Virus record (IMG/VR): IMGVR_UViG_3300049828_000060
Location: 1-33,902 of that record
Length of the DNA: 33,902 nt
DNA from: a virus
Taxonomy: Duplodnaviria > Caudoviricetes
Strand: one strand, 5' to 3'
Part shown: in pieces, positions 5,118 through 14,215 of the stretch
How the letters are laid out: each line of letters starts with the position of its first letter
Numbering within the stretch: the first letter of the stretch is position 1
The notes under the pieces: generated by a model
Seen by the model: the letters and a program-made list of their open reading frames with translations, nothing else
Databases searched by the model: none
Told to the model about the DNA's origin: nothing
Translations under genes and position numbers: made by a program

Positions 5118-5290
5118 TAGTCGCTGTCCCTTGTGATTTCGTAAGATACTAGATGCAGGACACCAACGGCTGCGGCGAGAGGCATCCGACCCTCATACTC
5201 ATAGATCAGAGCCTTGATCCGATCACCCAGTTCCCCGGTCACGTCCTCGGCCCTCTTGCCGTCGCCCTTCAAGACGCGGATGTCAGTCAT
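5117..5290 (-). CDS. Hypothetical protein (57 aa), not in the ORF track
   Basis: MTDIRVLKGDGKRAEDVTGELGDRIKALIYEYEGRMPLAAAVGVLHLVSYEITRDSD; GGGG RBS; fills the gap with coupled ends. Confidence 0.65.
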   Translation of the reverse strand: MTDIRVLKGDGKRAEDVTGELGDRIKALIYEYEGRMPLAAAVGVLHLVSYEITRDSD

Positions 5291-5480
5291 GGCTTTCCCC
5301 CATCAACGCTGTCACGTCAGTCAGGTCTGTGAACGTGAGGTAGCAGTGGTTGCTCTTGCCTATGCCAAGCAACACTTCGTGCTGGTGCATGGTGCGGCTC
5401 CTCGGTGCATACCGTAGCCCATTACGGCGAACCAACTCGCGTAGCAGTTCTTCGTCGGTATATTTCTGCAGGTCAGTCAT
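5283..5480 (-). CDS. Hypothetical protein
   Basis: MTDLQKYTDEELLRELVRR; AAGGAG RBS; overlapping junctions. Confidence 0.65.
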   Translation of the reverse strand: MTDLQKYTDEELLRELVRRNGLRYAPRSRTMHQHEVLLGIGKSNHCYLTFTDLTDVTALMGESHD

Positions 5481-5739
5481 GGCTCTCTCCTTTGATCTCT
5501 GCGAGGGTGGCGAGGGCGATGTCGCGCATATCTTTGAATGCTTCTTCCACCTCATAGTCTTCGCCCCAGATCATTTGCTCATCGCGCTTAGCAATGGCGA
5601 GCAGCCCAGCTTCCGCCTTCGCCAGCTTGTCAGTCAGAGCCTCGATGCGGGCGGCGGATTTGCGGCACCAATCGCAAGCCATTTCTTTGGTCGCATGTAC
5701 TGGATAGCCGCAAGCGCCACAGCATGTTTGGTCACTCAT
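5473..5739 (-). CDS. Hypothetical protein with CxxC/CxxC and coiled coil
   Basis: CCGAC...CDWC, AARIEAL; AAGGAG RBS. Confidence 0.65.
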   Translation of the reverse strand: MSDQTCCGACGYPVHATKEMACDWCRKSAARIEALTDKLAKAEAGLLAIAKRDEQMIWGEDYEVEEAFKDMRDIALATLAEIKGESHD

Positions 5740-5977
5740 GGCTCTCTCCTTTGATCAACGCGCTGTCAGCTTCTGCCAGTGTTTCTGCTAAATCGCGAAC
5801 AGGAATGCCGCGCAAAATTCTTTCTGGGATAGGGCGAATGCGGTTTAGTGCAGACCGAAGCGCATTCCGCTCCTTGGTCAGGGCTTCGATGCGGTCGGCG
5901 GCTTGCTTTGTAAGAGCCACAAGACCGCCCCATGTCGGCTCACTCCGAAGCTGTTCAATTAGTTCTTCGTCAGTCAT
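5732..5977 (-). CDS. Hypothetical coiled-coil protein
   Basis: MTDEELIEQLR...AADRIEAL; ATGA overlap with the upstream ORF. Confidence 0.65.
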   Translation of the reverse strand: MTDEELIEQLRSEPTWGGLVALTKQAADRIEALTKERNALRSALNRIRPIPERILRGIPVRDLAETLAEADSALIKGESHE

Positions 5978-6189
5978 TTCCGCCCCCGTTCCCAAGCCGC
6001 CCGCGACAGCCGATTGGCCAGCGTGTCCATGTCTTCGATGGTAATCTGGCGGTTAGCCACAATGGCCCAGTAAACTAAGTCCATGAACCGCTTGGGCGGT
6101 AACACAGAGGCAGCATTGCTAATGCCAAGTGCTGCTTCTGACTGGATGTCACGGTGCGGCATGACCTCTTTGCTTCTGCGAAAAAACAT
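5974..6189 (-). CDS. Hypothetical protein
   Basis: TAATG coupling to the upstream ORF; continuous operon. Confidence 0.6.
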   Translation of the reverse strand: MFFRRSKEVMPHRDIQSEAALGISNAASVLPPKRFMDLVYWAIVANRQITIEDMDTLANRLSRAAWERGRK

Positions 6190-6614
6190 TATTTCTTCTC
6201 CCTCTTGGCTCTCTCGACTACGCTATCAATCACGTCGATAAGCACTGGATTCTCACTAAGAATAATCTCTGCTCTGCGAATTGATGATGCCACAGTTGAA
6301 TGGTCGCGCTTAACAACAGCACCGATCTGTTGAAGCGACATGCCTAGTCTCTTACGAAACGTGTAGGCCATGATGTGACGGGCGTTAGCTATGGCTGCTG
6401 TATTGTTGTAGCCAATAAACTCATCCTTGGTTACGCCAGCTAGCTCAGCGAAGGTCTCAATGATTACGTTCTCGTCGTGATCGTTGCCCTTGCGAATGGT
6501 TACAAAGATGCTTGGTTGTTTGTAGGCCAAGCCCTTTTCTCTGCGGTAACTGGCCTTCTTGGTTTCTTCTGCGCTCTTGGCCAGAAGATTTGCATACTTC
6601 TCTTCGTGTGTCAT
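6189..6614 (-). CDS. DnaA C-terminal (domain IV)-like HTH protein
   Basis: ARHIMAYTFRKRLGMSLQQIGAVVKRDHSTVASSIRR matches the Bac_DnaA_C signature (SL..IG....RDHSTV). Confidence 0.8.
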   Translation of the reverse strand: MTHEEKYANLLAKSAEETKKASYRREKGLAYKQPSIFVTIRKGNDHDENVIIETFAELAGVTKDEFIGYNNTAAIANARHIMAYTFRKRLGMSLQQIGAVVKRDHSTVASSIRRAEIILSENPVLIDVIDSVVERAKREKK

Positions 6615-6632
6615 GGCTCTCTCCCAGAAGGT

Positions 6633-8990: not shown

Positions 8991-9660
8991 CGAGTGCATC
9001 CCCCCATCCTGACTTGGACTTGCGCTCTACCTTCTCAGCCTCAAGGTCGTCTTCCCAACGCTCACCATTCAACCACGTTGATGCGTGTGGGATAAACTTC
9101 TGTTCGGTTCCTGCCTCTGCCACATGCTTGGCGTAGGCCAGTGCTGCTTGAACAATTAGGTTAGGATCGGTTCTTGTTGCTGCTCTGGTAAATGCAGCAC
9201 GGGCATCACCCTTCCCAATGCGGCGGGGGTATGCCTGCCAGAAGGCGAGGAAAAAGGGAGTGTCGAGGGGGTGTGCAGATTTTGCACCCGAAGTAGTAGT
9301 ATAGTTAGCTACTCTTTTCTTAGTAATATCTAACCTAGTAATATTACTATCTACTTCGTGTGCAGAATTTGCACGGGTATCGTCTTCATCTGGCATGTCT
9401 TGCTCCATAGATGTGATGATATAGATGTTCGATCCACCTGAACGTGGTTCGATGCGAAGGTATCCTTCGTCTTCAAGGTACTGGATTGCGGTGACTACAG
9501 ACCGAACAGAGACACAGGCATCATGCGCTAGTGTCTCCCTAGATGGCCAGCATTCTCCATTGCCATTGGCATAGCGGGCTATCGCTAAGAGAACGACCTT
9601 GGCTGTAGGATTTTTGATGCGCGTCAGCGCAATGTCTGCTAACAGATCGAAGTGGATCAT
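8980..9660 (-). CDS. Phage replication initiator (lambda O-like; N-terminal HTH_36 wHTH)
   Basis: AKVVLLAIARYAN..GECWPSRETLA...VSVRSV..AI..LED.GY; C-terminal FWQAYPRRIGK and FIPHASTWLNGERWED; GGGGAG RBS. Confidence 0.88.
   Translation of the reverse strand: MIHFDLLADIALTRIKNPTAKVVLLAIARYANGNGECWPSRETLAHDACVSVRSVVTAIQYLEDEGYLRIEPRSGGSNIYIITSMEQDMPDEDDTRANSAHEVDSNITRLDITKKRVANYTTTSGAKSAHPLDTPFFLAFWQAYPRRIGKGDARAAFTRAATRTDPNLIVQAALAYAKHVAEAGTEQKFIPHASTWLNGERWEDDLEAEKVERKSKSGWGDALDGL
9271..9374. other. Putative replication origin within the initiator gene
   Basis: Two palindromic GTGCAGA(T/A)TTTGCAC units (9273-9287, 9360-9374) flank an AT-rich tract with TAGTAATAT repeats. Confidence 0.7.
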
Positions 9661-12866: not shown

Positions 12867-12884
12867 GGGGGGCCGAAGCCCCCC
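12867..12884 (-). terminator. UUCG hairpin after the first early gene
   Basis: GGGGGGC-TTCG-GCCCCCC then ATTTC. Confidence 0.55.
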
Positions 12885-12894
12885 GTGAGGGGCC

Positions 12895-13302
12895 TCAGGA
12901 TGCGAGGCCAAACTTGGCGAGGCGGCTGTCGATGCCGTGGCCAGTTGCGACGTGGGTGCGCTTGGGACGTGCGGTCCACTCTTCGCCAGCGAGGAGGAAG
13001 TACACTCCCTTGTCGGCGGCATGACGCTCTTCGAGGATGGCAAGCTCGGCTTCCATCTGCTCATAGCGGTCAAGCAGGCGTTCCAGTTTGACATCGGTGA
13101 TTTCTTGTCCACGCTGGGGCAGAAGGTCTTTGATCTCAGCGGCAAGGTCGCCCATCTGTCCCGTGCCAGTACGCTTCCACATGAGGCTATTGTAGCTGGT
13201 GAAGCAGGCATCCCGTGCCATGGAGATTTCAAGGTATTCGTTACCGTTATGGTATTTGATGACGGCGAGTTTCAGATCGACAAGGTTGGTTTGCTTAGTC
13301 AT
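12895..13302 (-). CDS. First early gene, helical hypothetical protein (135 aa)
   Basis: AGGAG RBS before MTKQTNL; GQEITDVKLERL...Y...GEEWTARP motif. Confidence 0.75.
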   Translation of the reverse strand: MTKQTNLVDLKLAVIKYHNGNEYLEISMARDACFTSYNSLMWKRTGTGQMGDLAAEIKDLLPQRGQEITDVKLERLLDRYEQMEAELAILEERHAADKGVYFLLAGEEWTARPKRTHVATGHGIDSRLAKFGLAS

Positions 13303-13582
13303 GTCTAGGTCTCCTGTTTGTTGGCGAGGACCACCCTCGCCATGAGTGCAAGACGCACCTGCGAGTAACCGACGAAGGAGGCTTGCAGTTCGCAAGCGTA
13401 ATCCCCCAAAGGCGGATGTGTTCGAGGGCGCAACGGAGACGCACAGACCAACAGCGACTGTGCAAAAGGATTATGCTTGCGAACTGTTACCGCTGGTGCG
13501 ACGCCAGCATGAAGGGCGAGGTGGCCACAGCAGAACAGGAGACCGCCAGACGCGCTGAGCAAACCAACCTTGGAGCGTCTGA
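13272..13582 (+). promoter_or_regulatory. ~310-nt nested imperfect inverted repeat; candidate ssDNA (Frpo-like) promoter or structured RNA
   Basis: Concentric stems 13281-13298/13555-13572, 13308-13323/13528-13544, 13331-13341/13515-13524, 13354-13368/13487-13500, 13386-13404/13468-13486. Confidence 0.7.
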
Positions 13583-13640
13583 CACTGGCCCTTTTAGTAT
13601 GCCTTATCACGTTTAGCTGTAACAATCGACCAAAGCAGGG

Positions 13641-13654
13641 TTTGTGCGTTGACA
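13641..13654 (+). promoter_or_regulatory. Late promoter motif copy 1 (terS)
   Basis: TTTGTGCGTTG overlapping a perfect TTGACA, about 50 nt before terS. Confidence 0.6.
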
Positions 13655-13701
13655 GCCCTTTAGCAGAGGTGGCTTATGGGGGGGACATAGGGGGGGCTGA
13701 C

Positions 13702-14088
13702 ATGGTAGGTAAAGCACCTGCAACGAAGGACAGGATGACACCGAAGCAAAGGGCGCTGGTTGAGGCGTATGTTGCAAACGGTGGTAACCTGACGAAAGCC
13801 GCAGCAGAAGCAGGATACGCTGAGGGCAACAGCGGAAGAGTCACAGCGTGGAAGAGTATGAAGCTACCACATGTGCAGCAGTACCTGATGCAGCAGACAG
13901 CAGCGGCGTTCAGTACACATGCAGCGATGGCTGTACACAAGGTCGCTAGCTTGGCACAGAAGGCAAAGAGTGAGTATGTACAGCTCGAAGCGAGTAAGGA
14001 CATATTGGATCGTGCTGGGTTCAAGCCGATAGACAGGGCACAGGTGCAAGTCGCTGGAGACATTAGAGTTTCCATCGATCTTGGCTAG
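13702..14088 (+). CDS. terS: Terminase small subunit
   Basis: MTPKQRALVEAYV....NLTKAAAEAGY HTH, SEYVQLEASKDILDRAG; first late gene. Confidence 0.85.
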   Translation: MVGKAPATKDRMTPKQRALVEAYVANGGNLTKAAAEAGYAEGNSGRVTAWKSMKLPHVQQYLMQQTAAAFSTHAAMAVHKVASLAQKAKSEYVQLEASKDILDRAGFKPIDRAQVQVAGDIRVSIDLG

Positions 14089-14215
14089 CGGAGAAAAGTT
14101 CCGGTGAATGATTCTGTAAGGTAGGGGGTGGGGGGAAAACTGAGAGACACAAGGTTACATATAGTCCCTCACTCGTATTTTTTCCCACCAAGGTTCGCTA
14201 TCAAGGAGATGATTG

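Follow-up and report, generated by a model that had tools for sequence, protein, structure and literature searches.

The early and late arms of a podophage genome run apart from a common junction, and at this junction the DNA can fold back on itself over some 300 nt, through the ribosome binding site (RBS) and first codons of the first early gene. What does a fold-back of this size do at the start of early expression? The window, by which we mean the whole stretch of DNA analysed (33,902 nt, IMG/VR record IMGVR_UViG_3300049828_000060), is a 33.9-kb podophage record whose early genes occupy the minus strand, reading leftward from 13302, opposite a rightward arm that starts at 13702 and encodes terminase, portal, capsid, tail and internal virion proteins. 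Annotation of the 65 ORFs recognised a replication initiator, an exonuclease of the YqaJ/RecE type, an SSB-like gene and a DUF932 protein, and no primase, helicase, DNA polymerase or RNA polymerase. Virion proteins yielded no RNA polymerase family or motif, the 1386-aa protein at the level of family and motif searches, and the 830-aa virion protein lies nearest to T7 gp15-like clusters. An earlier, sequence-only reading of the junction had proposed a promoter of the plasmid Frpo type, in which host RNA polymerase reads a folded single strand.

The record occurs in runs of freshwater, soil, fish-gut and wastewater origin and in unlabelled metagenomes. Among cultured phages, Pelagibacter phage EXVC031P Hodr is nearest (portal 64%, TerS 46% identity), and HTVC024P is much more distant (portal 27%). 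Host assignment through genome-contig matches was rejected, the seven matches falling in unrelated MAG taxa and probably representing binned phage contigs. In the available portions of PMC8477408 and PMC10504331, pelagiphages of the HTVC010P type share the divergent early and late arms, the length of about 34 kb and the lack of DNA and RNA polymerase; the window differs from them in the portal distance just given and in its junction, since HTVC024P lacks the fold-back there, as does the stretch of MEP301 that was read. The YqaJ exonuclease is encoded in 11 of 11 near-complete genomes, and the early-arm DUF932 (TIGR03299) phage-plasmid protein (11537-12415) in 8 of the 11 checked. Elsewhere in the window, several small early genes (5281-6624, families D4-D6) share repeated GTCATGGCTCTCTCC-type starts, possibly recombination cassettes; a tail-fibre-like gene (216-412) carries 39-nt (13-aa) tandem repeats; and a tail-associated gene (1328-1921) has a weak sulfotransferase-like match (phrog_3347, E 2e-5).

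On the plus strand, the region folds as a single long hairpin (DNA parameters, -87.9 kcal/mol, z -8.3). The minus strand of the window is also strongly folded (-80.6 kcal/mol, z -7.3), and with RNA parameters z was -11.2 for the plus and -7.2 for the minus strand; for each strand and each model, 0 of 100 shuffles was as stable. No local inverted repeat in the window ranks above the fold-back, which lies 6.5 SD (plus) and 4.8 SD (minus) below the GC trend of 169 segments of 336 nt, the next best lying at 2.8 SD, in a comparison that centred one segment exactly on the fold-back and took the others from a grid. Its features are collected in Table 1.

Table 1. Features of the early/late junction, in window coordinates.
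Feature	Position	Strand	Remarks
First early gene	12895..13302	-	encodes 135 aa, entirely helical; assigned to no known family
Whole fold-back, imperfect inverted repeat	13264..13590; core 13272-13582	+	folding strand is the template of the first early gene
Basal left arm	13272..13323	+	complement of first ~10 codons, start codon (13302-13300), RBS (13310-13315) and leader
Local 7-bp hairpin	13323..13341	-	conserved; predicted 5' stem-loop of early mRNA
Template side of weakly paired zone	13342..13353	+	minus-strand transcription predicted to start near 13343
Spacer stem, left strand	13354..13368	+	pairs with about 13487-13499; sequence free, pairing covaries
Left-arm insert / side loop	13369..13385	+	in 30/34 relatives, variable sequence
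Core stem, left strand	13386..13404	+	contains TCGCAA (13390-95)
Apical domain	13405..13467	+	length and sequence variable
Core stem, right strand	13468..13486	+	contains -35-like TTGCGA (13477-82)
Non-template side of weakly paired zone	13500..13512	+	-12..+1 by position; GACGCC, a non-canonical -10
Basal right arm	13528..13582	+	sense copy (non-coding mirror) of the RBS and first codons, which has lost the start codon
T[TGA]TAG[TC]A motif near hairpin foot	13593..13599	+	conserved, often twice
Late promoter-like site	13649..13696	+	TTGACA, about 19 nt, TA, then two G tracts; conserved
Terminase small subunit (terS)	13702..14088	+	first late gene

All of the stems listed in the sequence-only reading were found, with pair probabilities of 0.7-1.0 in the core stem (13386-404/13468-86) and the basal stem (13281-98/13555-72). 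The -35-like TTGCGA is paired, the three G·T wobbles between the arms lie on the plus strand, and the left arm covers the RBS and first codons, all as that reading had it. Other parts of it needed correction. The CCTCGCC/GGCGAGG stem (13335-41/13515-21) is rivalled on plus-strand DNA by the local hairpin 13323-41 (0.6 local versus about 0.4 long-range in the DNA model; about 1.0 long-range in the RNA model). A bubble placed at 13501-07 corresponds to a wider, weakly paired zone of about 13500-13512, and extra left-arm nucleotides put at about 16 form an insert of about 18 nt. A side loop with a GAA triloop at 13369-81 is conserved in relatives as to its presence and not its sequence; its pairing is weakly predicted (p 0.18) by ViennaRNA, which gives no score to sheared G·A.

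The gene that starts inside the fold-back encodes a protein with a confident helical model (pLDDT 84.5) that matched nothing in the PDB; its only structural look-alikes are uncharacterised phage proteins, and the idea of a Gam-like nuclease inhibitor found no support, there being no PDB match. Directly after the gene, on the mRNA strand, lies a GC-rich, terminator- or stabiliser-like hairpin with a UUCG loop (12867-12884; z only -1.4).

Relatives were collected by a TerS search and an early-protein search (80 + 80 loci). Those with an early-gene homolog and sufficient flank were kept (115; loci without a detectable homolog or start are outside this number) and collapsed at <80% identity to 45 representatives; four loci with a short flank or no usable start, and three with a wrongly called start, were dropped. 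In each of the 45 representatives an inverted repeat crosses the point where the first early gene begins, and in 43 it includes the start codon; the repeat lengths of this survey are inflated by alignment run-on. The best local repeat falls at the early/late junction in 11/11 near-complete genomes and spans 1.1-1.2 kb in five. In L177/L178 and L208/L209 the repeat reaches about 1.4 kb, and in L177 the mirror spans the entire first gene. Mirror length ranges among relatives from about 40 to about 600 nt, and L035, which has a different first gene, has a mirror matching that gene. Near-identical strains have, among the differences listed, 0-1 in the hairpin versus about 20 in the preceding 290 nt. 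Searches by blastn against phages and plasmids returned no homologs of the hairpin.

A second junction architecture (L004, L009, L026, L030, L044, L053 and L065) has smaller tandem hairpins before a pair of early genes; TTGAC lies on their 3' arm, and some of the hairpins do not reach the RBS. Upstream of terS in L004, L005, L009, L026, L030, L057 and L065, two or three distinct hairpins are accompanied by a small additional ORF and by more short hairpins, and several of these loci share a ATCCGCACGG..GTGTGTG motif.

The sequence-only reading had also predicted that pairing would be conserved through compensatory changes, and that wobbles would favour the plus strand. Both predictions held. 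In a MAFFT alignment of 34 sequences (35 anchored loci, with L103 removed as mis-anchored), three helices paired in 90% of cells, versus 72% when shuffled and 37-44% when slid, and 18 of 24 stem pairs changed on both sides; these counts overstate significance because the relatives are not independent. Isolated mismatches scored on the plus strand over the 45 loci were G·T in 306 cases versus A·C in 39, where composition would give 178 versus 129. The remaining classes, scored symmetrically like the first, lean the same way (G·A 194 versus C·T 100, G·G 85 versus C·C 19, T·T 123 versus A·A 51). The lean to the plus strand holds in 42/45 loci, and the plus strand is the better folder in 44/45, as had been proposed for the window. 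The bias of the transversion classes argues against deamination alone as the cause. Since the plus strand is the template strand, the mRNA is not the fold under selection.

Loops speak to the nature of the folded molecule. GNA triloops are DNA-type, and cGNAg triloops numbered 24 on the plus strand, 1 on the minus strand and 12 in shuffles (maximum 18); about one third of the aligned relatives have a short apex carrying GNA triloop mini-hairpins. This evidence is modest because many copies share one apex. GNRA and UUCG loops were not enriched in the relatives' hairpins. A DNA-type reading of the triloops agrees with the available portions of PMC4496689, in which the loop of N4 promoters contains sheared G·A, and those of PMC5737381 indicate that such comparison separates ssDNA from RNA motifs poorly.

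The arrangement of paired and unpaired elements matches that of an opened promoter. With an anchor chosen by sequence pattern, 35/45 loci have TTGC[GA][AG] at the distance expected on the 3' arm, and 10/45 lack it. Over the 35 anchored loci, mean pairing is 0.83-1.0 across the -35-like box and mostly 0.8-0.98 across the spacer, falls to 0.32-0.62 at positions 25-37 (about -11..+2, about 13 nt) and returns to 0.7-0.8 beyond. The claim of a duplex -35 followed 17-18 nt on by a weakly paired zone is thus borne out, and the box is conserved in sequence: the four TTGC pairs are constant, and flanking and spacer pairs covary freely. The downstream duplex spans leader, RBS and first codons, the corresponding stem of the window reaching only about 0.4 in the DNA model. 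The claimed insert in the left arm measures 11-31 nt in 30/34 relatives, and because it interrupts the arm, the spacing from -35 to bubble is lost in linear DNA. A TAnnnT -10 occurs in 0/34 of the window's clade; A occupies -11 in 29/34, barely over the A-rich background of the zone (0.53-0.79). In the available portions of PMC8407463 a T at -7 is absent from many alphaproteobacterial promoters, and the conserved late promoter at this junction mostly lacks it as well. Transcription from near 13343 would give a 41-nt leader that opens with the conserved 7-bp stem-loop. The folded plus strand is a conserved template-strand mimic of an opened sigma70 promoter.

A marine sister group, retrieved with the Hodr TerS alone (80 loci, of which 17 were too short and 55 distinct), has a long repeat in 37 of the 55 distinct loci and none long in 18. 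Its mismatches (G·T 150 versus A·C 70) are less biased than those of the window's clade, and in Hodr's closest kin the two classes are about even. EXVC031P Hodr itself has a 700-nt repeat; in Hodr and its nearest kin (L088 3405-4098; L181-L193) the repeat runs into the start of terS. In a scan by helical distance, designed post hoc after examples had been seen, TTG and TAnnnT separated by 16-18 helical positions occurred on the 3' arm in 14/38 hairpins versus on the 5' arm in 3/38. Eight of the 38, three of them close kin, reach -35/-10 spacing only when folded, so that canonical spacing does arise through folding in this post hoc scan; for TTGACA boxes among them, spacers that measure 31, 34 and 47 in linear DNA become 17. 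A cruder version of the scan gave 10 on the 3' arm versus 0, nine of them contiguous in linear DNA too and hence usable as ordinary rightward promoters. Hodr scored on the 3' arm in the cruder scan and on the 5' arm in the helical-distance scan.

Frpo/ssi ssDNA promoters were reportedly treated by Masai and Arai in 1997. In the available portions of PMC9849209, PMC12672017 and PMC11541004, they are described from the leading regions of F, ColIb-P9 and pESBL, in classes 1-3. According to the available portions of PMC9849209, PMC12672017 and 10.64898/2026.01.09.698686, plasmid ssDNA promoters are active in vivo from the folded strand with the duplex silent, and can also prime or delay strand conversion. 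As far as these portions go, the phage element resembles them in being a large non-coding template-strand stem-loop ahead of the earliest genes, in a -35/-10 spacing that folding would rebuild, and in its predicted need for host polymerase and predicted silence as dsDNA; the DUF932/TIGR03299 phage-plasmid protein in the same early arm is a further likeness. The duplex -35 is present as TTGCGA, and as TTGACA in several sister-group members. A canonical -10 at 16-18 bp is found in 0/34 of the window's clade and in 14/38 of the sister group, in 8 only when folded (post hoc). The phage element differs in its carrier, a tailed dsDNA phage for which no ssDNA phase is known, in its non-canonical -10 in the window's clade, in having a promoter activity that is predicted, and in a mirror that spans RBS and coding sequence, up to a total of 1.1-1.4 kb. 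A blastn search against 72,556 plasmids gave one 23-nt chance match (E 0.3). The Frpo-type interpretation is supported in fold, polarity, duplex -35 and bubble geometry, and not in sequence homology or, for the window's clade, a canonical -10. As judged from sequence and predicted structure, the fold-back on the plus strand is fairly probably an ssDNA-dependent promoter for host sigma70 polymerase that serves the first early gene.

Other functions have been weighed against this one. 6S RNA is a free RNA of fixed size whose duplex-bubble-duplex form mimics an open promoter. A plus-strand RNA of the phage might likewise bind host sigma70 polymerase, or act as an antisense or sponge RNA; the shared geometry, the larger strand gap in RNA folding (z -11.2 versus -7.2), a G·U bias that fits RNA equally well and a T-run after the hairpin in many loci all fit such a molecule. 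We consider it unlikely: its 5' end would have to begin inside the early gene at a depth varying from tens to about 600 nt, and consensus scanning gave no plus-strand promoter. RNA tetraloops are not enriched, and Rfam, tRNA/tmRNA and consensus promoter scans of the window returned nothing relevant, the best Rfam match (E 2) being far under gathering scores. TTGACA and TAnnnT at helical spacing are, moreover, a sequence-specific feature of DNA promoters. The phage element also differs from 6S RNA in being continuous with the gene that it would template and in its conserved -35 sequence.

The same geometry and the same requirement for ssDNA would suit a single-strand origin, at which complementary-strand synthesis starts from a primer that host polymerase makes on the folded strand, expression being secondary. 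Frpo is reported, in the available portions of PMC12672017, to do both, and no phage primase, helicase or DNA polymerase is annotated here. The mirror follows RBS and coding sequence, even those of the swapped gene in L035 and the whole gene in L177, which counts against priming as the main job because a primer signal would not need it; the predicted start also yields a 41-nt leader with a conserved 5' stem-loop. Priming as the principal role thus appears rather improbable.

Expression could instead begin outside the hairpin. The T[TGA]TAG[TC]A motif is found in 42/45 relatives, with at least 2 copies in 21, and only 6 plus-strand copies exist in the whole window. It resembles a minus-strand -10, so that an ordinary or activator-dependent leftward promoter at TAGTA would start an RNA, in the window near the hairpin foot, with a long 5' leader that locks translation by folding over the RBS of the same RNA; the minus-strand RNA does fold well. 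This is improbable. The mismatches disfavour the minus strand, a consensus -35/-10 pair lies right of the hairpin in only 11/45 loci and at scattered positions, and the motif is often in tandem at about 10 nt and falls inside the mirror in loci with kilobase repeats. Four further TAGTA copies lie within the replication-initiator gene (9273-9374), where two near-identical 17-nt palindromic repeats flank an AT-rich stretch; this element, likely a replication origin, is the second-best local repeat in G002 too. The idea that TAGTA connects the hairpin foot with the putative origin was rejected, since it fits the window and G002 but not clearly the other nine genomes.

T7 concatemers are processed by way of fold-back priming from a 3' end. 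If the element were a structure of that kind, for genome ends or packaging, or the by-product of repeated copy-back, its likeness to a promoter would be incidental. The fold-back adjoins terS in all genomes, contig ends cluster on both sides of terS, and the mirror, which varies in length from about 40 to about 600 nt and is remade after gene swaps, implies copy-back events. This explanation is equally improbable, in that it leaves the constancy of -35 box, spacer, bubble and side loop unaccounted for. Contig ends (8/41 left ends within 171 nt upstream of terS codon 12; 7/41 right ends within about 190 nt of the stop) coincide with the G tracts that flank terS (13678-13696 and about 14121-14135), and may be assembly breaks; they were not accepted as termini. 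The only apparent terminal repeat, in G005, is 86% identical and was rejected as a strain chimera. Among 20 runs (contigs only), genome ends did not pile up; the contigs of the one RNA run all lay outside the hairpin.

The G tracts are conserved in relatives and are possibly a pac or nick site, a quadruplex or an assembly artefact. The late promoter-like site beside them (13649-13679) was parsed in 32/45 relatives, with T at -7 in 8/32, and may need a phage activator. TerS of the window is weakly like PDB 6w7t, 2cmp and 7joq and TerL matched nothing in the PDB; the packaging mode is not settled by terminase likeness.

The phage N4 has template-strand DNA hairpins as early promoters of a dsDNA podophage; in the available portions of PMC4496689, these have a stable loop with sheared G·A on a stem of about 7 bp; supercoiling extrudes them, and the polymerase that reads them is an injected phage enzyme. 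The fold described here spans 200-1400 nt, carries sigma70-type boxes and comes with no detected phage polymerase, so that the short N4-type stem is not matched. Cruciform extrusion on the N4 precedent, which would form the fold by supercoiling with no free ssDNA, is very improbable for an imperfect 300-nt repeat, as it would cost, by rough estimate, +310 kcal/mol against the 97-212 released at sigma -0.03 to -0.06, and no polymerase motif of the virion-read kind was found.

How might an ssDNA promoter work in a dsDNA phage? Host sigma70 polymerase would bind the -35 box on the folded plus strand and start near 13343, in a pre-opened zone where, for that reason, a strong -10 may be unneeded. 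The mirror arm would take the place of the absent non-template strand and, by re-annealing once the polymerase has passed, free the RBS from the RNA:DNA hybrid. The promoter would fall silent on conversion to dsDNA, and the same transcript could also prime repair synthesis. The least certain step is the source of the single strand, for which we suggest 5'-to-3' resection of the minus strand from the terS-side genome end, leaving the plus strand as a 3' tail; this end would enter first if packaging begins near terS. First-round resection would need a host enzyme, because YqaJ is an early gene product.

Host-polymerase ssDNA promoters are established for conjugative plasmids, and we found none described for tailed dsDNA phages: searches for such promoters or repeats in these phages, including the Hodr literature, returned plasmid promoters, N4 and unrelated work only, most subscription papers lying outside the search. 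Four core motifs had no match in the searched part of the PMC10690425 supplements, a listing as 'candidate RNA' being possible in the remainder. If the ssDNA-dependent promoter is real, these phages would pass, at entry or during replication, through a single-stranded phase that has gone unrecognised, and expression of the first gene would be tied to the physical state of the phage DNA. A mirror that tracks coding sequence would be a new answer to the release of mRNA from a single-strand template. The system can be approached in culture, with Hodr on Pelagibacter HTCC1062, and short variants that carry canonical boxes lend themselves to tests in vitro. We tentatively suggest, as a possible extension, that a widespread family of freshwater and marine podophages, including a cultured SAR11 phage, may expose up to 1 kb of ssDNA at the first-entering end and use a self-made mirror as both pre-opened promoter and stand-in non-template strand: a plasmid-style 'leading region' that would sense resection of the end and answer with the first protein.
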